A stretch of DNA of 64,000 nt from NCBI GenBank assembly GCA_965199905.1, contig OZ241366.1:3242981-3306980 (forward strand). The letters are read 5' to 3'. Of this stretch, positions 9,075 to 52,863 are shown piece after piece. Each line of letters starts with the position of its first letter. Within the stretch, counting starts at the first letter, position 1. A program made the translations under genes and the position numbers. This DNA comes from Ilyomonas sp. GTDB taxonomy: Bacteria > Bacteroidota > Bacteroidia > Chitinophagales > Chitinophagaceae. The notes under the pieces are model-generated. The model made no database searches and had not been told where the DNA came from. It saw only the letters and a program-made list of their open reading frames with translations.

Positions 9075-9215
9075 TTTTGGTAACCATCGTCCGTCGCTTT
9101 TCTCATCGGTAGTTGTTGTCATTTCTGCTGCTTCAACACGCAGGAATGCTCCCATCACGTTCGGGGCAATAATTGGGCTTTTCTCAAAGCGAGTAAGAAG
9201 CTCCGGTTTTCTTCA
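9075..9215 (+). repeat. Modular dispersed intergenic element, copy A
   Basis: TTTTGGTAACCATCGTCCGTCGCTTTTCTCATCGGTAGTTGT + hairpin CATTTCTGC..GCAGGAATG + GTTCGGGGCAATAA + AAAGCGAGTAAGAA; matches copies B-E. Confidence 0.85.
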
Positions 9216-9273
9216 GTTTCAAAACATCACATTACTTACAGCCAATACTTTTGCAACGCAAAAACAACAACAC

Positions 9274-9600
9274 ATGGGCTGGCTTTATCTATTGATAGCA
9301 GGTTTTCTGGAAATCGGGTTCAGCATTTCTTTGGCAAAGATGAAAGACACCCTTGGCTGGCTGTTCTGGAGCTGGACGGCTTCGTTCCTGTTTTTCCTGT
9401 TTGTAAGTTTATGGCTGATGTACAAAGCCATCGAAACCATTCCTGTTGGCACCGCTTACGCCGTGTGGACGGGCATAGGCAGCGTTGGAACCGTGATTGT
9501 TGGAATCATTTTCTTTAAAGAACCAACCGATTTCTGGCGGCTGTTTTTTATCGGCATGCTTATCATTTCGCTGATTGGGCTGCGGCTGGTTTCAGAATGA
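9274..9600 (+). CDS. SMR family small multidrug / guanidinium exporter (Gdx/SugE-like)
   Basis: WLYLLIAGFLE membrane glutamate; IPVGTAYAVWTGIG; 4 TM, 108 aa. Confidence 0.9.
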   Translation: MGWLYLLIAGFLEIGFSISLAKMKDTLGWLFWSWTASFLFFLFVSLWLMYKAIETIPVGTAYAVWTGIGSVGTVIVGIIFFKEPTDFWRLFFIGMLIISLIGLRLVSE

Positions 9601-9689
9601 TGATCTTTTATTTAGCAGGCAGGTAACATTCGTTCCTTTTTACAAATTAAAGATTGGTTTTTGAAAATGTAGCTGCGTTTTACTAAATT

Positions 9690-10505
9690 TTAGTTTAGCT
9701 GGATCTCAAATAGGGACGGCCAGTTTTTACCCGTTATATAAAAGCTTTTTTTAGCAGAATCGTAGGCAATTCCGTTCAACACTTTCTCACGGTTGTCAGG
9801 GTTGTTTTCGTCAATTTTTTTGCCGGCCTGCGCCATAATATCACCGATATTTATAACGCCTACAATTTTGCCGGTTTGCAGGTCAATCTTCACAATTTTC
9901 TTCTCATGCCAGATGTTGGCATATACAAAGCCATCCACATATTCAAGTTCATTAATGCTGCTCACCGGTCCATAATTATCAGTGATGCCGAGCGTAGTTA
10001 TTACTTTAAAACTATCCGGGTTTACAAAGTACAAATTGCTGCTTCCTGTGCTTACGATAAGTTGTTTTCCATCTGTCGTCATGCCCCAGCCTTCGTAAGG
10101 AAAATTAAATTCGCTTAGTTTTTTGAACGTTGCCAAATCATACACATACGCTTTGTTATTCTGGTAAGTAAGCTGGTATAGCTTATTGCCAATGATGGCA
10201 ATGCCTTCACCAAAATCTGTGGCAGGCAAATCAACCTTTTGTTCTTCTTTGCCTGTACTTAAATCAGATTTTATCAAACGGCTTTCTTCCGGTTCACCGG
10301 TGCTTTCGTATAAAGCATTGTTGTGCCAGATGAGACCTTCAGTAAAGTTACTGGTATCGTGCGGGTATTCTTTTATTAAGCGATAAGAAATGGTTGGCGG
10401 TGGCGGATTGCTTGCATCACTTATATTGTTATCACTATTGGTATCTGTATTGTTTTTACATGCAATAAAAGAAAAAAGAAGAACAGCCGCAGCTAATTTT
10501 TTCAT
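9690..10505 (-). CDS. Glutaminyl-peptide cyclotransferase (lipoprotein)
   Basis: YPHDTSNFTEGL, FGEGI, QLTY, EGWGMT, NELEY, VLNGIAYD; start moved to MKKLAAAVLLFSFIAC. Confidence 0.92.
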   Translation of the reverse strand: MKKLAAAVLLFSFIACKNNTDTNSDNNISDASNPPPPTISYRLIKEYPHDTSNFTEGLIWHNNALYESTGEPEESRLIKSDLSTGKEEQKVDLPATDFGEGIAIIGNKLYQLTYQNNKAYVYDLATFKKLSEFNFPYEGWGMTTDGKQLIVSTGSSNLYFVNPDSFKVITTLGITDNYGPVSSINELEYVDGFVYANIWHEKKIVKIDLQTGKIVGVINIGDIMAQAGKKIDENNPDNREKVLNGIAYDSAKKSFYITGKNWPSLFEIQLN

Positions 10506-10566
10506 ACAAAAAGGAATGGGCAAATGTAGGAAGGTGAATGATAAAGGGATGTTGAAAATGGAGAAG

Positions 10567-10986
10567 TTATTTCATTTTCATCTGGGCAAAATACGGATGA
10601 TTGGGATTGACAATTAACTCCTGGCGCAGCGGATGAATCAACACATCCATGTCTTCTAACGGAATGGCTCCTAATAAAATTTCACTGTCACCCGGCAACA
10701 CCATAGCACTGCAACTGCTGCGACGGTTTTTAAACCGGATTTCTACCGGCGATACTACGTTGCAGTCTATTATTGATCCATTTGCCAATTGTGCTTTCCT
10801 TGTTTCAACAACAGGCAATTGCAATTGCTCCTGTATGTTTTCGTTAATAGCAAGCATATAACTTCCTGTATCGACAAGTGCCGTTACATACATTCTTTTT
10901 ATTTCTTCTTCACCTATATAATGCCGCCTGGCTAATTCCAGATCGCCGCCATTAATCAATTCAATTTCTGCATATACCAATTTCAT
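10567..10986 (-). CDS. Clan AA (retropepsin-like) aspartic protease
   Basis: ALVDTGS catalytic motif and ILLGAIPLEDMD tail. Confidence 0.85.
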   Translation of the reverse strand: MKLVYAEIELINGGDLELARRHYIGEEEIKRMYVTALVDTGSYMLAINENIQEQLQLPVVETRKAQLANGSIIDCNVVSPVEIRFKNRRSSCSAMVLPGDSEILLGAIPLEDMDVLIHPLRQELIVNPNHPYFAQMKMK

Positions 10987-11021
10987 GATATTTCTATTTA
11001 GTAAATGATAAAGATAAAAAC

Positions 11022-11966
11022 TTATTCCTTTTCTTCCTTCTCCCGCTGCGCATCTAAGTACGCAATACTTACGTTCAACTCATATCCAATCAACAACATC
11101 ATAGAGTTTAAAAAAACCAGCAGCATCAGGATGATAAGCGATCCGATAGAGCCATAAATTTTGTTATAACTGGAAATGTTTTGCGCCCAATATGAAAATA
11201 AGCCGGTAATGATAATCATCAACACCGAAGCAAAGAATGCACCCGGTGTAAACAGCCGGCTTTTCAACTTTACAGTAGGCGCATGTTTGTAAATATAACC
11301 GATGGTATAAATAAATAAAAACAGGATGATAAGCCAGCGTGAATTTTGAATTAACGCAATAAGTGCTTCATTCTTTATGTTCGCCCATGTCATGATTTTA
11401 GCAAATACATAACCTTGCCCCACCGATATAAGAATGGTACCAATCAACAGGCTTACCAGTGTTATGATAAGCCGGATGGCACGCAGCCGCTTTTTGAGAA
11501 AGTTTGTTTTACGCTTTTCTACCACCGACCTGTCGAAGGTGCGGATAATACCCATCATGGCATTGGACGAGGTGAACAGAACTAGTATGAAAGAGAAGGA
11601 TAGCAAGCCGGTTGTTTTCTTATTGAAGAAGTCGTTCAGGAAGTCCGTCAATGCTTTTTTAGTATCGTTGTCTGGTGTAAAGTCACGTATAAAAAGCAGC
11701 AGTTGCTCATATACCTGTTTTGAGCCGGGCACGTATGGAACCAGTATGCACAGGAACAGCGTAATAGCAGGAATGGCAGTGATGATATTAAAGGAAATGG
11801 CAGCCGCGCGTATGTTTAGCCCGTTCTGCTTTATTTGTGCAGCCAGCATATTGAATACATCAAAGATGCGCAGCTTGCGAAAGCCGGGCAGCGTAAGTTT
11901 TTTGCTGGCATTGCGAATGCCAACAACCGGTGATGCAGTAACAAATATGCGCTCTATCTTAGTCAT
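11022..11966 (-). CDS. YihY/BrkB family inner membrane protein
   Basis: RAAAISFN, multiple TM helices, PGAFFA, YNKIYGSIGSLIILMLL. Confidence 0.9.
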   Translation of the reverse strand: MTKIERIFVTASPVVGIRNASKKLTLPGFRKLRIFDVFNMLAAQIKQNGLNIRAAAISFNIITAIPAITLFLCILVPYVPGSKQVYEQLLLFIRDFTPDNDTKKALTDFLNDFFNKKTTGLLSFSFILVLFTSSNAMMGIIRTFDRSVVEKRKTNFLKKRLRAIRLIITLVSLLIGTILISVGQGYVFAKIMTWANIKNEALIALIQNSRWLIILFLFIYTIGYIYKHAPTVKLKSRLFTPGAFFASVLMIIITGLFSYWAQNISSYNKIYGSIGSLIILMLLVFLNSMMLLIGYELNVSIAYLDAQREKEEKE

Positions 11967-11972
11967 GATGGC

Positions 11973-13004
11973 TTACTTCAACTGGCGGCTTTTTAGTAAC
12001 GAATCCAGTGCCTGCTGATACATTTTTGCGTATTGTATATGCTCGGCATACGTAACACTAAAATGACTGTAGCCACTGAAATCGCTTTTGGCTACAAAAA
12101 AATAATAATCGGTTTTAGGTGCATCCAATACGGCATCAATTGTTTTTACCGATGGCGTACAGATAGGACCCGGCGGCAAACCTTTATTTACATACGTATT
12201 ATAAGGCGAAACTACATCCAGATAACCACGCAGAATGCGCTTTATGCTAAAGTCTTTCAGGGCAAATTTAATGGTTGGGTCCGCTTGTAATCTGTCCCCT
12301 TTGCGATAGCGGTTTATGTACACGCTGGCAATCTTCCCTTTATCATCCGCCTTGTTGGTTTCTTCTTCTACTATAGATGCTATGGTAACAACCTGCGCAG
12401 GCGTAAGGCTGGCAGCATCTGCTTTTTGCAAACGGTTATCGCTGCTCCAGAATTTATCCTTTTCATCTTCCAGCCGCCGCAGAATTTTGGTGAGCGATGT
12501 ATTCCAGTAAACAACATACGTATCTGGTATCACCAGTGTCATCAGCGTGTTGGTATCTACGCCGAGTTGTTGTAAAGAATCATTGCTGTTGAAGTAGAGA
12601 GAAGCATGAATAGAATCGGTGGAAAAGTTTCGCCCGATGAGCTTTGCAAAATCATTGGCTGTACGCAGCTTGGTAATAACGAGGCGAACTGCGGATTGCC
12701 TGTTATTGCGAAGCGTTCTTACCACATCAAGCACACTTTGCCCCGGCTCAATGGCAAAGCGGCCCGGCTTTAACCGATCCCATACGCCAGCTTGTCTCGC
12801 AAGGATATTAAACCACCATACATGATTAATATAATTGCTGTCTCCCAGTTGCTGCTGCGCCTGCCGCTTTACAGGCTGGTTATCGTAGAGAAAAAGGTAT
12901 TTAGGTTTGGATGAAAAAGTAGTGGCAGTGCCAAACGTAATCCAGGCAAAGTATAAAGCCGCAACAGCGATGATGATACCAATGGCAAGAAGCACTTTTT
13001 TCAT
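11973..13004 (-). CDS. mltG: Endolytic transglycosylase MltG
   Basis: TIASIVEEET, IASVYINR, LQADPT, SPYNTY..GLPPGPI, YFFVAK; start taken at MKKVLLAIG. Confidence 0.95.
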   Translation of the reverse strand: MKKVLLAIGIIIAVAALYFAWITFGTATTFSSKPKYLFLYDNQPVKRQAQQQLGDSNYINHVWWFNILARQAGVWDRLKPGRFAIEPGQSVLDVVRTLRNNRQSAVRLVITKLRTANDFAKLIGRNFSTDSIHASLYFNSNDSLQQLGVDTNTLMTLVIPDTYVVYWNTSLTKILRRLEDEKDKFWSSDNRLQKADAASLTPAQVVTIASIVEEETNKADDKGKIASVYINRYRKGDRLQADPTIKFALKDFSIKRILRGYLDVVSPYNTYVNKGLPPGPICTPSVKTIDAVLDAPKTDYYFFVAKSDFSGYSHFSVTYAEHIQYAKMYQQALDSLLKSRQLK

Positions 13005-13171
13005 CTCAGACATTTCCTCTTGTGAAGGTCGCAATTTATAGAGAAGAACGGATTAATAAGATTGTATTGGACGGGCATCGTTCTATGTACGGTGTACGAT
13101 GTTATTGCAAGCTCTTACAATATTGCGGAAATGAAAAGGACAATAAAATCTATTTACGCATTGCCAACAAC

Positions 13172-13612
13172 TCACCATTCACCACTCACCTTCAGCACCA
13201 TTACGGTCAGCCGGCTGATACATGTCATTTTCCCCGTAGCTTCTTCGCGTATTTGTATGTCCCACACATGCGTTTGCCTGCCGAGGTGTATCGGGCGACA
13301 GGTAGCAATTACGTTGCCGCCGGTTACGCTGCGCAAATGATTCGCATTAATCTCAAGACCCACACAACGATATTTTTCCCTGTCAACAACAAGCGCACTG
13401 GCAACGCTGCCTGCGGTTTCTGCCAAAGCGGCTGAAGCGCCGCCATGAAGGATGCCAAAAGGCTGTTTTGTTTTTTCATTTACCGGCATGCTGGCGCGTA
13501 AAAAGTCATCGCCGATTTCGGTGAACGCGATGCCAAGATGTGCACTCATGGTGTCGGTATCACGGTTCTGCAGATCGTGTATGGTAATATCTTTTTTAAA
13601 CCAGATGGACAT
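13172..13612 (-). CDS. Hotdog-fold thioesterase (PaaI/MenI-like)
   Basis: KQPFGILHGGASAALAET, VGLEINANHLRS, HLGRQTHVWDI. Confidence 0.9.
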   Translation of the reverse strand: MSIWFKKDITIHDLQNRDTDTMSAHLGIAFTEIGDDFLRASMPVNEKTKQPFGILHGGASAALAETAGSVASALVVDREKYRCVGLEINANHLRSVTGGNVIATCRPIHLGRQTHVWDIQIREEATGKMTCISRLTVMVLKVSGEW

Positions 13613-13680
13613 GATTGGAGTTATGAATTATAAATTATGAATGATGGATTGTTATTCCTGCAAATGACTGAGAAAGATCG

Positions 13681-14151
13681 CTATCTATGGATAGATTTTT
13701 TTACCGGCCCGGGCAAAAAAGTTCCGGCATCTGCGCCGTGGCGAATGATGTCTCTCACTAAGGTAGAAGCCACCGATGTGTATTGCGGAGAGCAGGTAAG
13801 AAAGATGGTTTCAATGTTTAGGTCAAGGCTGCGGTTCATGTCGGCAATTACTTTTTCATATTCAAAATCACTAACGTAACGTATGCCACGAAGGATGTAG
13901 TTAGCGTTTACATTGCGACAACATTCTACCGTTAATCCTTCATAAATAAGAGCTTCTACACGAGGCTCATCTTTATAAATTTCCTGCAGCCATTGCAGCC
14001 TTTGCTCGTCGCTGAACATGGGTTGCTTATTGGCATTTTTTCCAATACCAATATATAGTTTATCAAACAGGTTGAGGCTGCGGTCAATAATATCCGTATG
14101 CCCCAATGTAACAGGATCGAATGTGCCCGGAAATAATGCGATGCGCGACAT
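13681..14151 (-). CDS. coaD: Phosphopantetheine adenylyltransferase
   Basis: FPGTFDPVTLGH, ILRGIR...DFEYE, MNR, VASTLVR. Confidence 0.97.
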   Translation of the reverse strand: MSRIALFPGTFDPVTLGHTDIIDRSLNLFDKLYIGIGKNANKQPMFSDEQRLQWLQEIYKDEPRVEALIYEGLTVECCRNVNANYILRGIRYVSDFEYEKVIADMNRSLDLNIETIFLTCSPQYTSVASTLVRDIIRHGADAGTFLPGPVKKSIHR

Positions 14152-14158
14152 TCTTTTC

Positions 14159-14190
14159 GAATTATGAGTTATGAATTATGAGTTATGAAT
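14159..14190. repeat. Heptamer tandem array (4 x GARTTAT)
   Basis: gaattat gagttat gaattat gagttat gaat; a similar array lies at 13617-13645. Confidence 0.85.
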
Positions 14191-14235
14191 GCCCTGCCTT
14201 TGTGCTAATACCGCATACCTTAAACCCCGTATCTT

Positions 14236-15165
14236 TTAATTGTCTCTTCCTGCCAAAAGATACAAGGCAGCCATGCGTACAGCAACGCCATTTTCTACCT
14301 GGTTCAATATTATGGAGTAAGGTCCATCGGCCACATCGCTGTCAAGCTCAACGCCGCGATTGATAGGACCGGGATGCATAATGACAATATCTTTTCCTAC
14401 TTCGTCAAGCAGCTTGCGGCTTATGCCATAAGCGAGGTTGTATTCGCGCAGCGACGAAAAAAGTGGCTGGTTCTGACGTTCCAGTTGTATGCGCAATACG
14501 TTGGCAACATCGCACCACTGCAGCGCCTTTTTTACACTGTATTCCACACGTACCCCAAAAGCTTGCTGAATGTATTTGGGAATGAGTGTAGGCGGACCCG
14601 CTACAGTAACTTCGGCGCCCATTTTTGTAAGCAAATAAATATTACTTAGCGCTACGCGGCTGTGCATGATATCGCCAATGATAGCAACCTTCAATCCTTC
14701 CAGACTACGGTTTAATCTTTCCTGCATAGATAGCGCATCAAGCAGTGCCTGCGTAGGATGCTCATTGATACCATCACCGGCATTAATGATGGCGGCGGAA
14801 ATATGCTTCGCCAGGAAGTGCGGCGCACCGCTGGCGCTATGACGCATTACCACCATATCTACCTTCATGCTTAGTATGTTATTCACCGTATCAAGGAGTG
14901 TTTCGCCCTTGGATACAGAGGAAGCCGAAGCGGTGAAGTTGAGCGTATCGGCACTTAACCGCCGCTCTGCCAGCTCGAAAGAGATGCGTGTGCGCGTGGA
15001 ATTTTCGAAGAACAAATTGACAATAGTTACATCTCGGAGGGAAGGCACTTTTTTTACCGGTCTTTGTAATACTTCCTTGAATTGAGAGGCGGTGGAGAGT
15101 AGTAATGAGATATCCTCTTTGGTAAGGTCTTTAATGCCCAGCAGATGCGGCGTGGATAGTTTCAT
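14236..15165 (-). CDS. pyrB: Aspartate carbamoyltransferase catalytic subunit
   Basis: FFENSTRTRISF, KGETLLDT, NAGDGINEHPTQALLD, GDIMHSRV, MHPGPINRGVE. Confidence 0.97.
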   Translation of the reverse strand: MKLSTPHLLGIKDLTKEDISLLLSTASQFKEVLQRPVKKVPSLRDVTIVNLFFENSTRTRISFELAERRLSADTLNFTASASSVSKGETLLDTVNNILSMKVDMVVMRHSASGAPHFLAKHISAAIINAGDGINEHPTQALLDALSMQERLNRSLEGLKVAIIGDIMHSRVALSNIYLLTKMGAEVTVAGPPTLIPKYIQQAFGVRVEYSVKKALQWCDVANVLRIQLERQNQPLFSSLREYNLAYGISRKLLDEVGKDIVIMHPGPINRGVELDSDVADGPYSIILNQVENGVAVRMAALYLLAGRDN

Positions 15166-15409
15166 TAAAGAGCGAAGATATAGGAAAAGGAAAAACGGTG
15201 GGATAATTTATACTTAGTAAAACAAGAAAATTGGCGTTAATAAGTAGATGCGGCTTTGCAATGGTTGACGTATCTTATTCTATTATTGCATGCTACAGTT
15301 AAAACTAAGCGCTAAATTTGAGCTGGCGGTTTTTGGTGCCGCTATAATGGAATGCGGCAAGATGTTGTACATTATTTTAAAACAACATCCCATTAAAGCA
15401 TAAATTACA

Positions 15410-16165: not shown

Positions 16166-16194
16166 TTTTGCAGTCATAAAACTGTCGATAGAAA

Positions 16195-20739: not shown

Positions 20740-20797
20740 ACTTCTGTAAATATGGAAAGCGTGTAAGTAAATTATTGGAGAATACTATTGAAAAATT

Positions 20798-20905
20798 GAA
20801 ATGGCTTTTTTTATTCGCTTTTATAAAAGTTCAATCATTGCCCTGAACCCATCTGTGAGTGACACAACTGTCGATCACAAAAGAGACTGACGATGGCTAC
20901 CAAAA
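20798..20905 (-). repeat. Modular dispersed intergenic element, copy B
   Basis: Reverse complement: TTTTGGTAGCCATCGTCAGTCTCTTTTGTGATCGACAGTTG + TGTCACTCACA + GTTCAGGGCAATGA + AAAAGCGAATAAAAAAAGCCATTTC. Confidence 0.85.
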
Positions 20906-20998
20906 TTGTATTTGTATTTCTTCAAATCGATCTACTGATCATTATAAATATCTTCGGTAAAAGATAGTTGCTATATTTAATTTGCTTAATGATTCCTT

Positions 20999-23929: not shown

Positions 23930-25771
23930 ATGATAGTTATGGAACAGGTTCATCCCAATTATAGTACAACCAACAGCCGCGAAGAAGGCACAGAAGACGA
24001 GATATTTAACAGCCCTTTGCCGCGTGCCGTTGTGCGTCCTAATGCTTACATATTATTGGATGGTGAGTGGAAATTTGAGCTGGATAAAGAAGATGCCGGC
24101 TTGCAGGAAGGCTGGTTTCTCTGGCATCAATATCATGATACCGCGCATTGGCCTGGCAGTATTGAAGAGCAGATTAATAAAGGCAAGGAAGAACTGAATC
24201 ATCCTGCATGGCAGGATAAAATTGTGGTTTGGTATGAACGGGATTTTCCAATGCCTGATCGTTCTCAGTTATCACCGCAAACCATGATGCAGCTTACGTT
24301 TGGCGCTTGTGGGTATGAAACGCGCGTTTGGCTCAATGGTCAGCCATTATCAACTATTGAAGGAGAAAATGCACATGTAGGCGAATACACTTCTTTCTCG
24401 TATGAAATTAACGAAGAAAGCCTGCAACTGGTGAACCGCCTTACGGTTCGCATTGCTGATACGATGGATGCCGATATTCCGCGTGGCAAACAGGAATCGT
24501 ATGTGTACAAACGTGGCGGCATCTGGTACCAAACTTATAGCGGTGCAGTGCGCAGTGTATGGCTGGAAGCGGTGGAGCGCAACCGGCTTCGCTCGCGTGT
24601 GGGCGTGGTAAGCATTGTAGAAGATAATCTGGTACGGTTCAACGTCACCACCCGCATTCATGATGCCGGTGATTACACCGTTCGCCTGCAGGTATTTAAC
24701 CGAAAACAGGAAACGAACGAACCTATTGCTTCTTCCGATTATCCATTGCACTTAGAAACAGGGGAAAAACAGCAGCGTCTTGTACTGGAAATACCGGATG
24801 CAAAATATTGGTCGCACCAATCACCACACCTGTATCGCCTGAAGGCAACTCTGATAGATAACAGAGGATATGAAGCAGAAATAGAAACCCGTTTCGGACT
24901 GCGCAAAATAGAAGCGCGCGGCTGTTGTATTTACCTGAATAACGAAGCGATTTATCTGGATGGTATTTTATATCAGCCCAATACATCTACCTACGAAGAG
25001 ATTAAGATGCACATGTATGCAATGAAGGAACTGGGTTGCAACCTTGTGCGCATACATATTGCCGGTGTTGACCCGCGCGTATATAATCTTGCTGATAAAA
25101 TGGGCATGCTGCTATGGGTAGAAGTACCCAGCCCGCACCGTTCCAATGTAGTAAGCCGGGCTGCGCACAGAGCTGAACTAATACGCTCACTGGCTTTAAT
25201 AGAAAATCATCCTTCGGTTGTTATCTGGAGTTTGTATAATGAAGACTGGGGCATTCAGGATGTAGGTACAAGTGCCGATACGCGCAATTATATCATTGAT
25301 ACTTATCGATACATGCAGTTAGCGCATCCGCAGTTTCTGGTGGTCGATAATGATGGCTGGCAGCATGTATCTTTTGAAGGACGATTGCAATCTGATTTAT
25401 TGACCGCGCATCTTTACACGCCTGACATAGACAGGTGGCGCGAAGTATTGGATAAGTTGGTGGATGGACAATTGAATGGCGTGGCAGCTTTTCCGCTTGT
25501 AGTTGGCGATCCCTATTTCTATCGCCGCCAAATGCCGCTTTTAGTGAGCGAATGGGGCGGTTTTGGCTTTGTAAATTATGGCGGACCAAAAGATGCGGAT
25601 GAGCGCGCGCAGCAAATAACATTGTTCAAAGAAGAGCTTCGCAAACGCCCGATAGCCGGTGATGTTTATACACAGGCAACAAACATTGAAGAAGAAAGAA
25701 ACGGTATTATAGATGCGGGAACGGGCGAGCTGAAAGTGCCGGCCGGAATATTAGCGTCGAAGCCGCGATAA
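23930..25771 (+). CDS. Glycoside hydrolase family 2
   Basis: LLDGEWKF, RGKQ...IWY...SG..RSVWLE, RFGLRKIE, NHPSVVIWSLYNEDWG, LVSEWGG; no signal peptide. Confidence 0.88.
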   Translation: MIVMEQVHPNYSTTNSREEGTEDEIFNSPLPRAVVRPNAYILLDGEWKFELDKEDAGLQEGWFLWHQYHDTAHWPGSIEEQINKGKEELNHPAWQDKIVVWYERDFPMPDRSQLSPQTMMQLTFGACGYETRVWLNGQPLSTIEGENAHVGEYTSFSYEINEESLQLVNRLTVRIADTMDADIPRGKQESYVYKRGGIWYQTYSGAVRSVWLEAVERNRLRSRVGVVSIVEDNLVRFNVTTRIHDAGDYTVRLQVFNRKQETNEPIASSDYPLHLETGEKQQRLVLEIPDAKYWSHQSPHLYRLKATLIDNRGYEAEIETRFGLRKIEARGCCIYLNNEAIYLDGILYQPNTSTYEEIKMHMYAMKELGCNLVRIHIAGVDPRVYNLADKMGMLLWVEVPSPHRSNVVSRAAHRAELIRSLALIENHPSVVIWSLYNEDWGIQDVGTSADTRNYIIDTYRYMQLAHPQFLVVDNDGWQHVSFEGRLQSDLLTAHLYTPDIDRWREVLDKLVDGQLNGVAAFPLVVGDPYFYRRQMPLLVSEWGGFGFVNYGGPKDADERAQQITLFKEELRKRPIAGDVYTQATNIEEERNGIIDAGTGELKVPAGILASKPR

Positions 25772-25783
25772 AAGGTATAAAAA

Positions 25784-25896
25784 AAGAGGCTGTCTCAAAA
25801 GCCGAGACAGCCTCTTTTTTATTCGGATACCTGATGGAGAAAGTTCTCGTTTAAGCGATTCTCAAAGCCTTTATTTTACTTTTGAGACAGCCTCTT
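25784..25896. mobile_element. MITE-like element / IS end remnant with 17-bp terminal inverted repeats
   Basis: AAGAGGCTGTCTCAAAA (25784-25800) and TTTTGAGACAGCCTCTT (25880-25896); a third half-copy GAGACAGCCTCTT at 25804 forms a terminator-like hairpin; no transposase. Confidence 0.6.
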
Positions 25897-25910
25897 GTTA
25901 TTTGATAGAA

Positions 25911-26135
25911 CTATACCTTCTTCGGCGGCAATGCAAACGCCACTGCCTCATGCTCAAAATGCCCGCGGTGAGAGCCATCGCAAAAAGGCTTATTTTGCGA
26001 AAGACCGCAACGACAAATTGATACAACTGTGCGTCCGCCTAAACCGTACGGATTGCCGTCTTTATCTACAATTTCAAAATCACCATCTACTTTCAAAGAA
26101 CCATTGCTGTTTACTGTCAGTTTTACTGCTGCCAT
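25911..26135 (-). CDS. CDGSH iron-sulfur domain protein
   Basis: ICRCGLSQNKPFCDGSH; start moved to MAAVKLTVNSNGS. Confidence 0.93.
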   Translation of the reverse strand: MAAVKLTVNSNGSLKVDGDFEIVDKDGNPYGLGGRTVVSICRCGLSQNKPFCDGSHRGHFEHEAVAFALPPKKV

Positions 26136-31916: not shown

Positions 31917-31984
31917 TGGGGATTGAATAAGTAAGGTTTAATATTTTCCGAAAGCAATAATCTTTTTAATAGTGAATCTTTTAA

Positions 31985-32098
31985 GAAATGGCTGTTCCTT
32001 ATTCGCTTCGATAAAAGCCACATCATTGCCCGGAACAATGATCCGCCGCGGCGGACGCAACGGTCGATCACAAAAGAGACAGACGATGGTTACCAAAA
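31985..32098 (-). repeat. Modular dispersed intergenic element, copy C
   Basis: Reverse complement: TTTTGGTAACCATCGTCTGTCTCTTTTGTGATCGACCGTTG + palindrome TCCGCCGCGGCGGA + GTTCCGGGCAATGA + GAAGCGAATAAGGAACAGCCATTTC. Confidence 0.88.
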
Positions 32099-32248
32099 TC
32101 TGTATTTTATAAATTGCTAAGCACTTCTTTTGAAGAATATTAATATTTAATCTTACTTATTACGTTGCTCTGACATTATCTTAATATTAATTCTGGCTCT
32201 TTATCGGCTGACAAGAGCACCATCTCTATTTTTGCATAAATTCACTCT

Positions 32249-32929: not shown

Positions 32930-33937
32930 ATGAGTTTACTCATAGTCATTATAGCCCTGGCCATCATCTTTGATTATATCAATGGCTTTCACGATGCGGC
33001 AAATTCTATTGCCACCATCGTATCTACCAAAGTGCTTACACCTTTCCAGGCAGTGCTGTGGGCCGCGTTCTGGAACTTCGTTGCCTTCTTTGTTTTTAAA
33101 GAACACAAGGTTGCCAACACAGTTGCAAAAACCATTTATCCCGAATATGTTGACCTGGTTGTAATTCTCGCTGGCTTGATTGCCGCCATCATCTGGAATC
33201 TTTTTACGTGGTGGTTTGGCATTCCATCCAGTTCATCACACACATTGATTGGTGGTTTTATAGGTGCAGCGGTTGCCAAAGTGGGTTCCTTTAGTGTTGT
33301 AGTAATGGCAAACCTTACCAAGACTGTTCTGTTCATTTTCCTCTCACCACTCATCGGTATGATACTCGCTTTTTTTATCACGGTTGCCATTGTCTGGATC
33401 AGCCGAAAATCGCGGCCGTATAAAACGGAGCGATGGTTTAAACGGTTGCAGCTTGTATCATCCGCCGCGTTCAGTTTAGGTCATGGCGGCAACGACGCGC
33501 AGAAAGTAATGGGACTGATTACGGTGGCTATTGTCTATCATCAAACCAATGGTCATGTTCCTGATAACGTAGTAGAGCAAATGCCTTTTTGGGTGCCGCT
33601 TGCCTGTTATTCCGCCATTGGTTTAGGCACCATGAGCGGCGGCTGGCGCATTGTAAAAACCATGGGTACACGCATTACTAAAGTTACTCCGCTTGAAGGC
33701 GTAGCGGCGGAAACGGCGGCTGCCAGCACATTGATACTCACCGAAGGCCTTGGCATTCCTGTCAGCACCACGCATACTATCACCGGTTCTATCATTGGCG
33801 TTGGCGCCACCAAGCGTTTGTCTGCCGTTCGCTGGGGCGTTACCATTAACCTGATCTGGGCCTGGGTGCTTACCATTCCGGTTAGCGCTTTGTTGGCCGC
33901 CGGCATTTATTTTTTGTTGAATCTTTTTATAAAGTAA
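32930..33937 (+). CDS. Inorganic phosphate transporter (PiT family)
   Basis: GFHDAANSIAT, GIPSSSSH, HGGNDAQK, GIPVSTTH signatures. Confidence 0.95.
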   Translation: MSLLIVIIALAIIFDYINGFHDAANSIATIVSTKVLTPFQAVLWAAFWNFVAFFVFKEHKVANTVAKTIYPEYVDLVVILAGLIAAIIWNLFTWWFGIPSSSSHTLIGGFIGAAVAKVGSFSVVVMANLTKTVLFIFLSPLIGMILAFFITVAIVWISRKSRPYKTERWFKRLQLVSSAAFSLGHGGNDAQKVMGLITVAIVYHQTNGHVPDNVVEQMPFWVPLACYSAIGLGTMSGGWRIVKTMGTRITKVTPLEGVAAETAAASTLILTEGLGIPVSTTHTITGSIIGVGATKRLSAVRWGVTINLIWAWVLTIPVSALLAAGIYFLLNLFIK

Positions 33938-33952
33938 AAAAAAGAATACAGT

Positions 33953-34026
33953 TTTTGGTAACCATCGTCTGTCGCTTTTGTGATCGGCAGTTGTCCGCCG
34001 CGGCGGATCAAAGTTCGGACTAATGA
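33953..34026 (+). repeat. Modular dispersed intergenic element, copy D (3' tail missing)
   Basis: TTTTGGTAACCATCGTCTGTCGCTTTTGTGATCGGCAGTTG + TCCGCCGCGGCGGA + GTTCGGACATAATGA. Confidence 0.85.
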
Positions 34027-34046
34027 CGGAGCAGTATGAAAATGCG

Positions 34047-34862
34047 TTATCCTTCCCTATTTTCCTGAATCAATTTCTTTACCCAATCAACCAGTTCAGC
34101 GCCTCCTTCCATAATAAACTCCTGCCCCTGTGCCGCACTTTGAAAATGTGTTTCTCGAAAAGAAGCCGGGCGATGATACGACATTGGTTGTTTGAAAAAA
34201 GTGTACGGTTTCCATTTACTTCTTGTCATTCCTTCTGCGGTTAATACAAGGTCGGCGTTATAAGTAAAACAACCGGAACCTGAAACCGAGTTGTTTAAAG
34301 AGAATGTATTGCCGGCCACATAAATACTATTGTTCTTTACATCTGTAAAGCTGCCATTTAAATGAGCATGATGACGTGAATAAGCAGGAACGTTTTCACT
34401 GCAGTGATATACAGCACCTATCTGCAAATAACCATAGATGATATGAAGATAAGGCGCACCTTTTTTATACTGTAACTCACCTTTATTATCATATTCCGTT
34501 TCTTTAAACCAGCCGAAGAATAAAAAAATATCTTCCTTCTTTACTTCATACTTCTTCGGCACAGTTAGCGCCGCATCGCATTGCCCGAAAATAGAAACAC
34601 GTTCCTGTGGATGCGGCGAGCTTATATTCTTTCTTATATCAGGATCTAAATGACAAGTATCATTCGCTTGAATAGTCGTGCTCGGCTTTAGTTCTTTAAT
34701 GGTTTCGAAGTATGATTTGCCGTTATAAAAAATCTCATTAAATGTTGTTATATCATTCTTCCGCGGGATGGGCAAAGAAAGCAGGGTGCCGTCCGGCAAT
34801 ACCGGGCTTGGCTGCTTACCAAACTTTGAATCAAACCCTTTGCGGCTAAAGATGATTTTCAT
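34047..34862 (-). CDS. Nmad3-like (nucleotide modification associated domain 3) protein
   Basis: MKIIFSRKGFDSKFGKQPSPVLPDGTLLSLPIP, CHLDPDI, FGQ, DIFLFFGWF, HIIYGYLQIG, GQEF patterns recalled for this family. Confidence 0.75.
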   Translation of the reverse strand: MKIIFSRKGFDSKFGKQPSPVLPDGTLLSLPIPRKNDITTFNEIFYNGKSYFETIKELKPSTTIQANDTCHLDPDIRKNISSPHPQERVSIFGQCDAALTVPKKYEVKKEDIFLFFGWFKETEYDNKGELQYKKGAPYLHIIYGYLQIGAVYHCSENVPAYSRHHAHLNGSFTDVKNNSIYVAGNTFSLNNSVSGSGCFTYNADLVLTAEGMTRSKWKPYTFFKQPMSYHRPASFRETHFQSAAQGQEFIMEGGAELVDWVKKLIQENREG

Positions 34863-45220: not shown

Positions 45221-45240
45221 TAGCCGCTTACCTAATTTAT

Positions 45241-45270
45241 AAAAGCCCGTTCTTTTGAGCGGGTTTTTTA
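45241..45270 (+). terminator. Intrinsic terminator
   Basis: CCCGTTC-TTTT-GAGCGGG followed by TTTTTT. Confidence 0.65.
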
Positions 45271-45313
45271 TTCGTTTGAAGCCTACATTTACAATAGATT
45301 TTAATAGCTGCCT

Positions 45314-47143: not shown

Positions 47144-47144
47144 A

Positions 47145-47375
47145 TTAATTGATTTCTTCAACCAGAATGTTTGCAGCTTCTTCTTTACGAAGACTTAGTA
47201 TATAACCAGAAACAGCAACTGATATAGGATCACCTAATGGTGCTATCTTATCAATCCAAATAACTTCTCCAGGCACGCAACCCATTTCCATCAGTTTGAT
47301 ATGTATATCCTCATTTGCAAATTCCTTAATTGTAACTTCTTTTCCCGCTGGCATTTCCGTTAATTTTTTAAGCAT
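47145..47375 (-). CDS. FeoA family protein
   Basis: KLMEMGCVPG...APLGDPI...LSLRKEEA. Confidence 0.92.
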   Translation of the reverse strand: MLKKLTEMPAGKEVTIKEFANEDIHIKLMEMGCVPGEVIWIDKIAPLGDPISVAVSGYILSLRKEEAANILVEEIN

Positions 47376-47454
47376 GCAGCAAAAGTAGAATTAGATTTTT
47401 TTTAAAGTCTCATACCATCGTAAAATAACGCCTTCACAACCCGAATCGGTAAAT

Positions 47455-47898
47455 TTGCAAATGCCTTTGGTTACTTTTCAAAATGCAGATGCTACGCCTG
47501 TTTTTAAAGGCAAAGCGAAACTCAAAAAGTTTATTCCGGAATTTTTTTCCGATTATAAGTTATCACTTGAATCACTTACTGTTGTTTTTTGTTCTGATGA
47601 ATATCTTCTTGTGCTCAATCGCCAATTTTTACAGCATGATTATTATACCGATATTCTAACTTTTGATTTAGGTTTTAGTTATTCGACTGTAGGAGAAATT
47701 TACATCAGCATAGATAGAGTTAAGGAAAACGCACTCTCACTAAATGTTTCCTTTCAGGATGAATTGCTGAGAATTATTTTTCATGGAATTTTGCATTTGT
47801 GCGGCTTTAGTGATAAAACTTCTTTACAGAAGAAAAAAATGACGGAAAAAGAGAATCAGTTGCTCGCCAGGTTTGCGGCATTTCACGTGAAACAATAA
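47455..47898 (+). CDS. ybeY: rRNA maturation endoribonuclease YbeY
   Basis: HDYYTDILTF, GEIYISIDRV, HGILHLCGFSD; TTG start. Confidence 0.93.
   Translation: MQMPLVTFQNADATPVFKGKAKLKKFIPEFFSDYKLSLESLTVVFCSDEYLLVLNRQFLQHDYYTDILTFDLGFSYSTVGEIYISIDRVKENALSLNVSFQDELLRIIFHGILHLCGFSDKTSLQKKKMTEKENQLLARFAAFHVKQ
47879..47894. promoter_or_regulatory. parS-like ParB binding site
   Basis: CATTTCACGTGAAACA: 14/16 match to TGTTTCACGTGAAACA with intact palindromic core; in the ybeY 3' end just before mnmG. Confidence 0.7.
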
Positions 47899-47906
47899 AG
47901 AAAATT

Positions 47907-49775
47907 ATGTTTTTAGAATACGATGTAATTGTAGCTGGCGCAGGCCATGCAGGTTGCGAAGCTGCATGTGCGGCAGCAAATATGGGAAGTAGCGTATTAT
48001 TGGTAACAATGAATATGCAAACCATAGCTCAAATGAGCTGCAATCCAGCTATGGGCGGAATTGCAAAAGGGCAAATTGTTCGGGAAATAGATGCACTGGG
48101 AGGTATGAGTGGAATTGTTACAGATATAAGCTCCTTACAATTTCGCATGCTCAACAAAAGCAAAGGACCAGCCATGTGGAGCCCCCGTGCCCAATGTGAT
48201 AGAATGCTATTTGCACAAACCTGGCGTGAAAAATTAGAAGAAAACAGGAATGTCGATTTCTACCAAGATACTGTTCAATCCATTATTATTGAAAATAAGA
48301 AGGTTTGCGGAGTCATCACCAGTTTGGGAAACGAAATCAGATGCAAAGCAGTCGTCTTAACAAGCGGAACTTTTTTGAACGGCGTTATACACATAGGAGA
48401 GAAGCGGATAGGCGGCGGCCGTGTGGCAGAAAAAGCAGCTACTGGTATTACAGAACAATTAGTGAGCTTGGGTTTTAGCAGTAACCGCTTAAAAACAGGA
48501 ACACCGCCTCGCATTGATGGGCGAAGCCTGGATTACTCAAAAATGGAAGAGCAAAAAGGCGATGATGAAATCATTGGCTTCTCTTACTTGCCATTTCAAA
48601 AGTTGAAACCTGAAAATCAACTAAGCTGTTTTGTAACCTATACCAATTCGACCGTTCACGATATTCTGAAAACCGGTTTTGACAGAAGCCCGATGTTTAC
48701 AGGCAGAATTGAAGGTACAGGCCCACGTTATTGCCCGAGTATTGAAGATAAAATAAACCGCTTTGCTGATCGGGACAGGCACCAGATTTTTGTAGAACCA
48801 GAAGGTTTTAAAACGGTTGAAATCTATGTAAATGGCTTTTCTACTTCGTTACCGGAAGAAGTTCAGCACCAGGCAATCCGGCAAATGCCGGGCTTTGAAA
48901 ATGCAAAAATGTTTCGCCCTGGTTATGCGATAGAATATGATTTTTTTCCACCAACACAACTGACAGCAAGTCTTGAAACCAAGTATGTAAACAACCTGTT
49001 TTTTGCCGGGCAAATCAATGGCACAACAGGCTATGAAGAGGCAGCCTGCCAGGGACTAATAGCCGGAATGAATGCACACTTAAAAGTGCAGGAGAAAGAA
49101 CCACTTATTTTGAAAAGAAATGAAGCTTACATTGGTGTATTAATCGATGACCTGATTAATAAAGGAACAGATGAACCATACCGTATGTTCACAAGCCGAG
49201 CAGAATACCGGACGCTTCTCAGGCAAGATAATGCCGATTTGCGCTTGACTGAAATGAGCTATAAACTTGGATTGGCAAGTGAAAAAAGAATGGAACTGAT
49301 GTCAGCAAAAAAACAGGAAGTAGCCGATATTATAAAGAAAGTAAACACAACTACCATTTCTCCTTCAGAAATAAATGGTTATTTACAGCAAATAGAATCT
49401 GCACCAATTGTAGAAAAACAAAAGCTATCTAAAATTATTTTACGCCCCGATGTATCGTTGCAAGCTGTGATAGAATCCTTTTCTCAATTAGAGAATAGTT
49501 TTTCCGGATATTCGATTGATTCTTTACAACAAAGCGAGATACAGATTAAATATGAACGTTATATAGAAAAAGAAGAACAACTTGTTGCAAAGCTGAATGA
49601 ATTGGAAAATCTGGTGATTCCGGATGTTTTTGACTATAATAGCATTTCGGCTTTAAGCAATGAAGCGCTTCAAAAGTTTAAAAGAATTCGTCCCAGAACC
49701 ATTGGACAAGCCAGCCGGATAAGCGGCGTAAACCCAAGCGATATTCAAATACTTATGATATATATTGGAAGATAA
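47907..49775 (+). CDS. mnmG: tRNA uridine-5-carboxymethylaminomethyl modification enzyme
   Basis: GAGHAGCEAA, MSCNPAMGG, LKTGTPPR, GPRYCPSIEDK, AGQINGTTGYEEAA, RMFTSRAEYR. Confidence 0.98.
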   Translation: MFLEYDVIVAGAGHAGCEAACAAANMGSSVLLVTMNMQTIAQMSCNPAMGGIAKGQIVREIDALGGMSGIVTDISSLQFRMLNKSKGPAMWSPRAQCDRMLFAQTWREKLEENRNVDFYQDTVQSIIIENKKVCGVITSLGNEIRCKAVVLTSGTFLNGVIHIGEKRIGGGRVAEKAATGITEQLVSLGFSSNRLKTGTPPRIDGRSLDYSKMEEQKGDDEIIGFSYLPFQKLKPENQLSCFVTYTNSTVHDILKTGFDRSPMFTGRIEGTGPRYCPSIEDKINRFADRDRHQIFVEPEGFKTVEIYVNGFSTSLPEEVQHQAIRQMPGFENAKMFRPGYAIEYDFFPPTQLTASLETKYVNNLFFAGQINGTTGYEEAACQGLIAGMNAHLKVQEKEPLILKRNEAYIGVLIDDLINKGTDEPYRMFTSRAEYRTLLRQDNADLRLTEMSYKLGLASEKRMELMSAKKQEVADIIKKVNTTTISPSEINGYLQQIESAPIVEKQKLSKIILRPDVSLQAVIESFSQLENSFSGYSIDSLQQSEIQIKYERYIEKEEQLVAKLNELENLVIPDVFDYNSISALSNEALQKFKRIRPRTIGQASRISGVNPSDIQILMIYIGR

Positions 49776-49902
49776 GTAATTGATAAACAATAGATTACAA
49801 TAAATAAAAATATTAATCATTCCCAAATTCCGGTTAAAAGCGGTCTGACATTTTTAACTGCCATAGTTCATCTGTAATATTACAGGCAAATCTGCCTTTT
49901 CA

Positions 49903-50679
49903 TTGAAAACGTTCCGGTTATTATTTGTTTTTCTTTTACTTTCCGGTGCTTCTTCAACATTGAAAGCACAGGTTGTACAAGTATCCGGTTCTGTTTACGA
50001 TTTTAGCAACCGGCTCCCAATAGAAGCTGTTAGCGTGGTGTGCACTTGTGGCAGCGGAACGATAACGGATTCAAACGGGCATTACAATATCTTGGTAAGG
50101 GAACATGATTCTTTATATTTCTCTTACCTCGGAAAAAATACCATCAAATATCCTGTTGATACCATCAGATACCCGGAGGCATTTGAAATCGGGTTGCATG
50201 TAGATGTAAAATGGTTGCCGGAAGTAAAAGTGAAAACCCATAATTATTACATGGATTCGTTGGAAAACAGGCGTGCTTATGCCAAGGTATTTAATTATCA
50301 GAAACCAGGTATCGCCATTAACAGAAATTCTCCATCAACATATGTTCCCGGCGCTTTAACGGTAGGTTTCGATTTGGACGAACTCATCAATATGTTTCGC
50401 TTCCGAAAAAACCGCCAAATGTTAGCTTTTCAAAATCGCCTGATGAAAGAAGAGCAGGACAAATACATTGATCATCGCTACAGCGTAAGACTGGTGAAAC
50501 AACTTACAAAATTAGAACCTCCTGAATTACAAACATTTATGGATCAATATCGCCCGGAATACGACATCCTGCAGCAAATGAACGATCTGGAATTAGGATA
50601 TTATATCGAGTTATGTTTTGATGACTACCGGAAACAGAAAAACGATACTCACCGCAGAAGTATATTAGGAACCAATTAA
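49903..50679 (+). CDS. Hypothetical exported protein with carboxypeptidase-regulatory-like N-terminal domain
   Basis: Signal peptide; SGSVYD...PIEAVSV...TITDSNGHY...FSYLG pattern; TTG start. Confidence 0.7.
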   Translation: MKTFRLLFVFLLLSGASSTLKAQVVQVSGSVYDFSNRLPIEAVSVVCTCGSGTITDSNGHYNILVREHDSLYFSYLGKNTIKYPVDTIRYPEAFEIGLHVDVKWLPEVKVKTHNYYMDSLENRRAYAKVFNYQKPGIAINRNSPSTYVPGALTVGFDLDELINMFRFRKNRQMLAFQNRLMKEEQDKYIDHRYSVRLVKQLTKLEPPELQTFMDQYRPEYDILQQMNDLELGYYIELCFDDYRKQKNDTHRRSILGTN

Positions 50680-50689
50680 TCATCCTTTA

Positions 50690-51697
50690 TTATCCAATCA
50701 ACCCGGCTTTTTTACTGATATCCAGCATTCTTTCGATAGGTTTTAAAGCAGCGATCCGCAAATCTTCCCGCATAGTTAATTCCGGTATCTCATACTCCAT
50801 ACACAAATACACTTTTTCGAGGGAATTTAGCTTCATATGCGGGCAATCGTTGCAGGCGCAGCTATTATCCGGCGGCGCAGGAATAAACGTCTTATTTGGG
50901 GCGTCTTTCTGCATTTGGTGAAGAATGCCCGTTTCAGTTGCCACAATGTATTCCTGACCTTCGTCCTGCACAGCATAACGAAGTATTTGTGTAGTACTGC
51001 CAATATAATCCGCCGCACGCAGCACGGCATCTTCGCATTCCGGATGCGCAAGCACTTTCGCATTTGGGTGGCGCAGTTTCAGCTTTGTGATTTTTTCAAG
51101 GCTGAAAATCTCATGAACCATACAGGCGCCGTTCCACAGCAGCATGTTTCTTCCGGTTTTCTTATTCAGGTAAGCACCGAGATTTTTATCCGGTGCAAAA
51201 ATGATGGGCTGATCTTCCGGTATGCTTTCAATAATCTTCACTGCATTACTGCTGGTACAGATAATATCACTCAAAGCTTTTATTTCGGCTGAACAATTTA
51301 CATAACTTACCACCAAATGATCCGGATGCTTCTCTTTAAACATCCTGAACAAGGGCGCCGGTGCGCTATCCGCCAGTGAGCAACCTGCATTCAGGTCGGG
51401 CAACAAAACCTTACGTGTTGGATTTAGAATTTTGGCTGTTTCAGCCATGAAATGAACGCCGGCGAACACTATTATATCTGCATCAGTTTTAGCGGCGTAT
51501 TGCGCCAATCCGAGGCTATCCCCGATATAATCTGCCACATCCTGTATATCCGCATCCTGATAGTAGTGCGCAAGCAGCACCGCGTTCTTTTCCTTTTTCA
51601 GCCGTTCTATCTCTTTAAATAAATCAATTGTGGGATTTATGTCGATATCCAGAAACCCGCGTTTCGAAACTTTTTCTTTTGCTTCTGCTATGTTCAT
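50690..51697 (-). CDS. nadA: Quinolinate synthase
   Basis: LLAHYYQ, GDSLGL, GVHFMAE, AGCSLA, YVNCSA, CMVHE, HPEC, C.C..CPHMK. Confidence 0.97.
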
Positions 51698-51699
51698 AA

Positions 51700-51940
51700 C
51701 TGTTGTAGTATGTATTTAATAATACTTATTTATATAAAATACCTATTACTATTACGGGTGTGTATATCGTGATAACTTACTTATACACACAGTACAAAGG
51801 TACTTAACTGATGTGTTTTCCACATGTATGTTAACATAAGCTGATTTCAACAAATCAGTTGTAATAACAGCTTAGCCTGTTTATCAACAATCCAAAAATT
51901 TAATGCCGGATTTGTTCATATTCCGCTATCCACATAAAAT
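51700..51940. other. Putative chromosomal replication origin (oriC)
   Basis: AT-rich tract 51706-51755 followed by DnaA-box-like 9-mers: TGTGTATAT 51759, TTATACACA 51781 (perfect TTATNCACA), TTTTCCACA 51816, TTATCAACA 51881, CTATCCACA 51926; divergent intergenic gap near parS and mnmG. Confidence 0.7.
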
Positions 51941-52133
51941 GCACTGTTGGTTAAGAGAAGAAAAATGGTGAGTAGTTTTCTCTTTTTCCGCATTCCAGGC
52001 AAAAGACGGTTATTTGTTCTACCAGTTTCCACAAAGCAAAAGAGGCGCAGGCAGCGTTTTACACCAAAAACCGACCTTATTCACATGGAGTGTGAAAAGA
52101 GAAAATCATTTTTTTCACTATGAAATACAAGAC

Positions 52134-52649
52134 ATGAAAAAATCCATAGTATCCTTTTTGCTTTTTACAGGCATAAGCGTTTTTATAACGGGCTGTTTGA
52201 AAGACAACAGCAATGCTACGCCGGCTATTGATTGCGACGGAATCACCATAACAGCACCTGTGGGCGAAATCTCTACCCTGAAACAACGTCTCGATTCACT
52301 CGGAATTCTTTCAACACAGCAAGACCCGCACGGCTTTTTTTATAGTATGGATTCTACCAAAGCGACTGATTCAGGGGTTCATGCCACGCCTTGTTCCAAT
52401 GTAGCCGTTACTTACAGCATTGCCCGGCTGGGCGATACTGTTTTCGAAAGGTCAGATTCTGTTATCGCTATTTCCTTGCCTCTCACCAATGTAATAGGAT
52501 TAAAAGCAGCCCTGCCTTTAATGAAAAAAAGAGCCACTATGACGCTCTATCTGCCGCCCAGCTTGGCTTACGGAACCTCTGGTTATAAAACCGTTCCGGG
52601 CAATACTTACATGACTTTTACCATCACACTTTATGATTTTTCAAACTAA
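52134..52649 (+). CDS. FKBP-type peptidyl-prolyl isomerase lipoprotein
   Basis: Lipobox VFITGC; VIGLKAALPLM...LYLPPSLAYG...VPGNTYMTFTITL. Confidence 0.8.
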   Translation: MKKSIVSFLLFTGISVFITGCLKDNSNATPAIDCDGITITAPVGEISTLKQRLDSLGILSTQQDPHGFFYSMDSTKATDSGVHATPCSNVAVTYSIARLGDTVFERSDSVIAISLPLTNVIGLKAALPLMKKRATMTLYLPPSLAYGTSGYKTVPGNTYMTFTITLYDFSN

Positions 52650-52719
52650 TATAACAACGGTCCTTATTACATTATATTTATTACCCCATAACGATTAACG
52701 GATCATTTAAATAATGCAG

Positions 52720-52863
52720 AATGCAGTTTTGATAGCCATCGTCAGTCACTTTTGTGGTCAACAGTTGTTGCCATTCCTGCTGCTTCTACACGCAGGAATG
52801 CTTCCATCAAGGTTCAGGGCAATAAGGGTGATTTTACCAAAGCGAATAAGAAACAGCCATTTC
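52720..52863 (+). repeat. Modular dispersed intergenic element, copy E
   Basis: TTTTGATAGCCATCGTCAGTCACTTTTGTGGTCAACAGTTG + hairpin CATTCCTGC..GCAGGAATG + GTTCAGGGCAATAA + AAAGCGAATAAGAAACAGCCATTTC. Confidence 0.85.

Follow-up and report, generated by a model that had tools for sequence, protein, structure and literature searches.

Five intergenic copies of a probable mosaic repeat with an exchangeable hairpin in the genome of an Ilyomonas-like bacterium

A stretch of 64,000 nucleotides (nt) from Ilyomonas sp. (assembly GCA_965199905.1, contig OZ241366.1, positions 3,242,981–3,306,980 of the forward strand; here called the window) contains five copies, named A to E, of a modular intergenic element in which two conserved arms enclose inserts of different sequence. 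A first-pass annotation of the window read the element as either a non-autonomous mobile element or a structured non-coding RNA family. The locus thus raises the question of which of these it is, and of how a conserved scaffold comes to have an exchangeable center. The five copies probably represent a lineage-specific, high-copy, non-autonomous mosaic repeat of the same kind as repetitive extragenic palindromes (REPs) and bacterial interspersed mosaic elements (BIMEs), carried by an Ilyomonas-like bacterium of soil or lichen. The family, with about 90–160 copies per genome, is most likely selfish DNA of the REP/BIME type, and neither an RNA gene nor the remains of a protein gene.

The five copies were found at the places and on the strands first reported by direct reading, by exact motif matches and by nhmmer. 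The core motif CCATCGTCNGTCNCTTTT, 16 bases of arm 1, has five exact matches in the window against a chance expectation of 0.37, and none of 100 shuffled windows had at least five matches. The nhmmer E-values of copies A–E range from 1e-22 to 1e-49, and the rest of the window contains nothing credible. Each copy spans 100–165 nt, and arm 1 is 76–93% identical between pairs of copies. Only 14% of the window is non-coding, and all five copies lie within it, in agreement with the earlier claim that every copy is intergenic. One coordinate required correction: copy E had been started at 52720, while its TTTTGA begins at 52727.

Alignment of the five copies gives a unit of constant order. An AT-rich lead-in that ends in AAATACAG is followed by arm 1 (TTTTGGTARCCATCGTCNGTCNCTTTTGTGATCGACAGTTG), which is strongly conserved and non-palindromic. 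Then come the variable insert, arm 2 (consensus ATCAAnGTTCnGGGCAATGAttg in the alignment, also written ATCAAGGTTCNGGGCAATGATTG in the unit model), a small AT-rich palindrome (GCTTTT-N-AAAAGC, found in four window copies and missing from D), and the tail, GAATAAGAAACAGCCATTTC. The shared first arm is as originally described except in its extent, as the left arm reaches ca. 10–25 nt further upstream. The second arm is also common to the copies overall, with a diverged rather than an intact version in D. The tail had been attributed to four copies; B, C and E have it in full, A has a diverged version and D has none.

The inserts are unrelated to each other in sequence, and all are found at one fixed position between the arms. 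The insert of A and E has a stem of 9 bp and a loop of 11 nt, and that of C and D is the perfect palindrome TCCGCCGCGGCGGA. Three further copies (F, G and H) were read outside the window, and in seven of the eight copies the stem has the same position despite the unrelated sequences. The predicted folds of the A, E, F, C and D inserts are each more stable than 96.6–99.8% of shuffles. The insert of copy B, folded alone, has no predicted structure (0.0 kcal/mol), and the TGTG/CACA stem assigned to it (20854–20866) is merely 4 bp long and borrows arm-1 bases. Each of the eight copies read has one hairpin, that of copy B being marginal because its insert lacks a stable fold; judging from the folding predictions, B is more aptly called a copy that lacks a stable hairpin. 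Of the three self-complementary insert types first proposed, the A/E and C/D types are therefore real stems and the B type is not. At its foot, the stem is flanked by TTGC and CT(C/T)CC in copies A, E and F and by GTTG and TCAA in copies C, D and H. A pattern search of the window found the A/E hairpin inside copies A and E only.

The size of the family was estimated from contigs of public sequencing runs holding this genome, as summed depth divided by single-copy depth, with at least 80% likeness to the single copies; these estimates undercount diverged copies, and the metagenomic runs may include a second related strain. With copy C as the reference, there are ca. 89–94 copies of arm 1, ca. 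40 of arm 2 and 2–26 of the tail. With copy B as the reference, there are ca. 48–59 copies of arm 1 and ca. 7 of the short B-type insert. The CATTCCTGC-N11-GCAGGAATG hairpin, with copy E as the reference, has ca. 150–160 copies at 80% likeness and 40–65 at 93% likeness. Near-identical hairpins mostly have scaffold-like flanks, which are absent for a few. By the depth counts and flanks, no other module is as abundant or as uniform as the hairpin, and the arms are older or more diverged. Over ca. 35 nt in ca. 90 copies of arm 1, just ca. 1–3 sites vary above 10%.

The same contigs show that modules are exchanged and inverted. Many copies hold the A/E hairpin inverted relative to arm 1, as read from contig ends past the matched region. 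In one such arrangement, GATTCTTGCGTGTCGAAGCAGCAGGAATC follows arm 1; of 29 positions, 25 agree with the reverse-complemented E hairpin and 16 with the direct form (counted manually). There is a fourth hairpin type, ATTCCTTCTG-CAAC-CAGAAGGAAT, and a sub-family in which the inner half of arm 1 is replaced (AGCCATCGTCTATGTAAATATTAAGCTGCG). At one locus, arm 1 is tandemly duplicated. The proposal of a conserved scaffold with swapped, unrelated inserts is borne out genome-wide, with ca. 90 arm-1 copies and several hairpin types in both orientations.

Outside this genome, the family was found at few loci. The exact arm-1 pattern, run over 185,579 species genomes (one per species), returned one true extra locus, in an Ilyomonas sp. 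metagenome-assembled genome (L001), with two copies (F and G) in 8 kb. Because this pattern is narrow and would miss copies G and H, the distribution is a lower bound. A scan of metagenome contigs gave chance matches only, and scans of viral contigs and searches of plasmids and phages gave no real match. Copy H is on a metagenome contig (L019) whose assembly also has contigs 99.5% identical to the window. Within the sequences sampled, the family is confined to one lineage, comprising the window genome and one Ilyomonas sp. metagenome-assembled genome.

Relatives with a PHO4 protein 85–90% identical, including Ilyomonas limi, have no copy in ca. 100 kb of syntenic or related loci. These relatives keep the GH2 ... 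MFS-PhoU-PHO4 gene order, and no counterpart of copy C was detected in their syntenic MFS-PhoU-PHO4 intergenic region. Their intergenic DNA is too diverged for an alignment of filled and empty sites. Copy D lies exactly where the gene order departs from that of all relatives fetched: from 33937–34862 onward to ca. 41700, the window has Nmad3, amine oxidase and sugar-nucleotide genes after PHO4, where the relatives have UvrB, PfkB or an epimerase. Copies of the repeat may mark rearrangement or insertion junctions.

A strain 99.5% identical to the window retains copies A, C and D. At the interval 31945–32142 (196–197 nt, spanning copy C), contigs in three runs match 21–22 nt on one side, continue with 31–32 unrelated letters and then match the other side, at single-copy depth. 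This joint is taken as another locus, not as an empty allele, since copy C is spanned by the main contig at equal depth.

Two traits tie the family to the REPs and BIMEs of Enterobacteria and Pseudomonas. REPs are imperfect palindromes of 20–40 nt, and the 29-nt CATTCCTGC-N11-GCAGGAATG hairpin is likewise a short, extragenic, high-copy palindrome (9-bp stem, 11-nt loop, ca. 150 per genome, intergenic only). The units are lineage-specific mosaics with conserved non-palindromic motifs, in which arm 1 has either of two inner halves and is combined with four types of hairpin, in two orientations, and with arm 2, the AT-rich palindrome and the tail. BIMEs bind integration host factor (IHF), gyrase or Pol I. 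The differences are also clear. The flanking scaffold here is ca. 100 nt, much longer and better conserved than the linker motifs of BIMEs, and the host is a member of the Bacteroidota. There is no GTAG or CGTC tag at the foot of the stem (CGTC is found only within arm 1, ca. 25 nt from its inner end). None of the eight copies read contains a REPIN, a doublet of two inverted REPs close together, and no REP-associated tyrosine transposase (RAYT), which in REP systems is a single-copy Y1 HUH gene flanked by the REPs, has yet been seen.

The BOX elements of Streptococcus pneumoniae have the structure boxA-boxB(n)-boxC, in which the middle varies by the copy number of one module. They resemble the present family as modular intergenic repeats of ca. 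100–200 nt with constant ends, a variable middle, ca. 100 copies and no coding capacity. In contrast to BOX, the middle here consists of unrelated hairpins, and there is no sequence relationship as far as an Rfam scan alone can compare the two. Miniature inverted-repeat transposable elements (MITEs) and the palindrome-associated transposable elements (PATEs) derived from IS200/IS605 insertion sequences (ISs) are similar in being 100–170 nt long, non-coding, dispersed, intergenic and hairpin-containing, and PATEs have no target duplications and, like the present element, no inverted ends. The present element differs from these in having no terminal inverted repeats, one strong central hairpin and no known parent IS. 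The matching subterminal hairpins at the two ends of PATEs, which one TnpA recognizes, were not found: there is one strong central stem, and the GCTTTT..AAAAGC palindrome is unrelated to it, AT-rich and weak. In six of six copies tested, the left part matched the reverse complement of the right part no better than shuffled sequence, and the idea that arm 1 and arm 2 plus the tail form one long palindrome or terminal inverted repeats was dropped as not significant.

Cases of REPs that are regularly nested in a larger repeat have been described in Anabaena (GTAG-15) and Halothiobacillus (CGTC-1) (Di Nocera et al. 2013, PMC3733652). As in those cases, the palindromic repeat here has a fixed place in a larger repeat, a place that is rarely or never empty. 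The nested REPs of that survey are dimers in a palindromic host sequence, whereas here one exchangeable hairpin sits between two arms that have no relation to one another. The survey mentions Bacteroidota only in passing, and a look at the literature on dispersed REP-like repeats found few reports in Bacteroidota and none for Chitinophagaceae.

The genes around the copies are of many kinds. The window as a whole is a housekeeping chromosomal stretch (dnaN, mnmG, recQ, recR, metH, nadA and others). Copy A (nhmmer envelope 9050–9212, plus strand; arm 1 at 9075–9115) is located in the gap between the divergent OsmC and SMR genes; downstream of it, a TAnnTTTG-like box is found before SMR (by eye). 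Its stem-loop, CATTTCTGC-N11-GCAGGAATG (9120–9148), contains one T.G pair, and its arm 2, GTTCGGGGCAAT, runs from ca. 9159. Copy B (envelope 20796–20928, minus strand; arm 1 at 20865–20905) has a short insert of 16 nt and all of the remaining modules, namely arm 2, the AT-rich palindrome and the full tail. Its neighbors are a redoxin gene, with the 3’ end toward the copy, and a GFO/IDH oxidoreductase gene, with the 5’ end toward it, and the copy is antisense to the two genes. Copy C (envelope 31981–32121, minus strand; arm 1 at 32058–32098, palindrome at 32042–32055) likewise has arm 2, the AT-rich palindrome and the full tail, and is between genes for an MFS sugar transporter and PhoU_div, antisense to both neighbors. 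The truncated copy D (envelope 33933–34032, plus strand; arm 1 at 33953–33993, palindrome at 33994–34007) is between the convergent PHO4 and Nmad3 genes.

Copy E (envelope 52702–52866, plus strand) follows an FKBP isomerase gene and precedes an HsdS fragment. An AT-rich left extension (52702–52726) is followed by arm 1 (52727–52767), a 29-nt hairpin, CATTCCTGC-TGCTTCTACAC-GCAGGAATG (52772–52800), and arm 2 (ca. 52806–52828), and then by the AT-rich palindrome and the full tail up to 52863. The HsdS fragment directly after it (52948–53211) is an 87-amino-acid remnant of a type I restriction specificity subunit, and no gene for a partner methylase or nuclease is close by.

Copies F, G and H are upstream of genes for an AlgH-like protein, a thioredoxin-like protein and a sigma-54 regulator. 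As with copy A, a TAnnTTTG-type box of the gene downstream of copy G lies between the element and the start codon (by eye), and thus neither the A nor the G element is part of the downstream leader. The orientations of copies A–E are +, −, −, + and +. A nearby co-directional gene is downstream of five of the eight copies, and the orientation toward neighbors is mixed. There is no constant partner gene or orientation, as the neighbors of the eight copies differ in kind and direction. GC skew within the window was uninformative as to a replication-strand bias.

A different explanation is that the copies are a multicopy small RNA or a cis-acting RNA family, in which a transcribed scaffold carries a central stem whose structure is retained and whose sequence can vary. 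This would suit the constant position of the stem among unrelated sequences, the five copies that point toward a co-directional gene, and the stems of A, C, G and H, where the non-Watson-Crick pairs are G.T on the arm-1 strand. Nonetheless, an RNA family is unlikely. RNAalifold predicts one weak 11-pair helix, of the end of arm 1 with arm 2, that includes one compensatory change (total −4.3 kcal/mol), but this helix is broken in B, C and E and its covariation term is positive, which is unfavorable; no conserved helix beyond the central hairpin was found. The fold z-scores of the whole element are just −0.4 to −1.0. The Rfam search called for by the first-pass annotation matched no family: there were no matches at the gathering threshold over the whole window, and a permissive search around C, D and E gave chance-level matches only (E of 0.25 or more). 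An attempt to assign a strand from G.T pairs and energies gave a mixed result, the better-folding strand varying by copy, and a single RNA fold would hardly be compatible with a hairpin that is present in both orientations. Searches for promoters and terminators, a sigma-70 scan included, gave no signature at the copies, and no good Bacteroidota-type TAnnTTTG box was seen by eye before arm 1. A promoter inside the element was rejected, as the stretch before TTTTGG is only loosely TAnnTTTG-like, with no properly spaced −33 TTTG (by eye). A riboswitch or leader for SMR after copy A was also rejected, on the lack of an Rfam match and the position of the SMR box downstream of the element. PolyA RNA runs of the host organism contain no reads of this bacterium. 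The lack of copies at the syntenic loci of relatives counts against an RNA family as well. The structured RNA half of the original proposal is therefore unsupported, and selection of the center for structure is not required: the inserts are separate repeat modules, and replacement of modules explains their pattern without compensatory evolution.

Some of the same observations bear on three other explanations. Host-recruited DNA sites, with arm 1 as a putative site for a nucleoid, replication or regulatory protein and kept uniform by selection, would account for arm 1 being the most abundant and most uniform of the non-palindromic modules and for the strictly intergenic copies. But the sequence is missing from relatives beyond the lineage, so that any host function of arm 1 would be very young, and the copies have no association with any gene class; we consider such an explanation quite unlikely, and it is in any case compatible with a selfish origin and not exclusive of the REP/BIME-type explanation. 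It is very doubtful that the scaffold is a docking site at which hairpin cassettes are inserted, exchanged and flipped, always in the same place between the two arms, by a site-specific single-strand DNA enzyme, or that ca. 90 scaffolds are expressed as a small-RNA family differing in one stem; the docking system, if true, would have no described counterpart. A decayed protein-coding origin, a possibility raised with the original proposal, is barely credible. The copies would then be fragments of a duplicated protein gene or small open reading frame (ORF) on the opposite strand (…KWLFLIRFxKSxIIAxN … QLSITKETDDGYQ). Several differences among the first six copies looked synonymous in the reverse frame, and copy C has one continuous reverse frame of 61 codons. 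However, with insert lengths of 43, 44, 16, 21 and 19 nt the frame does not continue from one arm to the other, there are stop codons in the A and F loops, and the variable columns number 12, 9 and 6 at codon positions 3, 2 and 1 (chi-square ca. 2 by our own estimate, not significant). A search of 1.84 billion representative proteins yielded one 61-amino-acid ORF over another element copy and a low-complexity chance match, and the forward ORF of copy E (60 amino acids) gave no candidate homolog. The coding relic was rejected on these grounds – frame breaks, stop codons, no codon periodicity and no homologous protein family. A predicted 61-amino-acid “protein” (P0122/P0123, at 10001–10186 of L019) is the reverse strand of an element copy and a spurious ORF; it led to the single extra locus, L019.

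The repeat or mobile-element half of the original proposal fits better than the RNA half, because the copy number is high and the family is confined to one lineage in the sequences reached, because the element is absent from the syntenic loci of relatives and randomly oriented toward genes, and because the promoter-like boxes of downstream genes lie between element and gene. Mobility itself is something we infer rather than observe. The mobile unit would consist of the lead-in, arm 1, a stem-loop of any of several unrelated types (or no stem-loop), arm 2, the AT-rich palindrome and the tail. It would have spread by DNA transposition or copying and not by vertical descent of a functional gene, and the stem-loop may be the most recently active or most homogenized module. 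The most likely route would be either a hairpin-recognizing single-strand DNA enzyme (a RAYT or IS200-type HUH transposase) whose gene is in another part of the genome, or gene conversion and template switching at the palindrome. Effects on the host, such as those on transcript ends, mRNA stability and rearrangement breakpoints, would probably be by-products.

Several findings weigh against a mobile repeat of the REP/BIME kind. No Y1_Tnp, HUH or other transposase is encoded among the ca. 60 ORFs of the window or in the loci of F, G and H. No insertion polymorphism was found among strains ca. 0.5% apart, and for copies B, C, D and E, the four checked, no run has a contig that skips the copy. 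No shared direct repeat flanks the copies, the ends of the element are fuzzy, and no empty site could be aligned. The element is not a classical MITE or REPIN, because its arms are not inverted repeats of each other, and it lacks the tag of REPs at the foot of the stem. The great uniformity of arm 1 across ca. 90 copies could mean functional constraint instead of recent spread, and the copy estimates have the limits described with them.

The family combines a long asymmetric scaffold, an exchanged and inverted hairpin and what appears to be a very recent, lineage-restricted expansion. It is a compact system in which to ask how hairpin repeats spread without a GTAG tag, a REPIN doublet or an obvious RAYT. 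It also matters for assembling and comparing these genomes, since its copies break short-read assemblies, with Logan contigs that stop within the hairpin, and one is at a synteny breakpoint; spurious ORF calls such as P0122 are a further consequence.

A second repeat is found at 25780–25900 in the window. This is a strong, bidirectional, terminator-like hairpin (AAAAAAGAGGCTGTCTC..GAGACAGCCTCTTTTTT) with a stem of 19 bp, and a second half-copy is ca. 80 nt further on. The depth bin that includes it (25511–26011) has 4–6 times single-copy depth in public contigs. As its sequence directly adjoins copies of the arm element elsewhere in the genome, it looks like a further multi-copy family of intergenic hairpins. 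In one relative (L012, 1597–2354), a HigB toxin and helix-turn-helix (HTH) antitoxin pair is encoded between the GH2 and CDGSH genes, and at that place the window has the terminator-hairpin repeat instead.

The window also contains arrays of short heptamers (GTGARTN / TTATGAR) at 1612–1636, 8872–8912, 13170–13198, 13621–13650 and 14159–14190. Four of these five are directly upstream of the start codons of minus-strand genes. A heptamer-like run, GAGTGGTGAGTGATGA, abuts copy G in L001.

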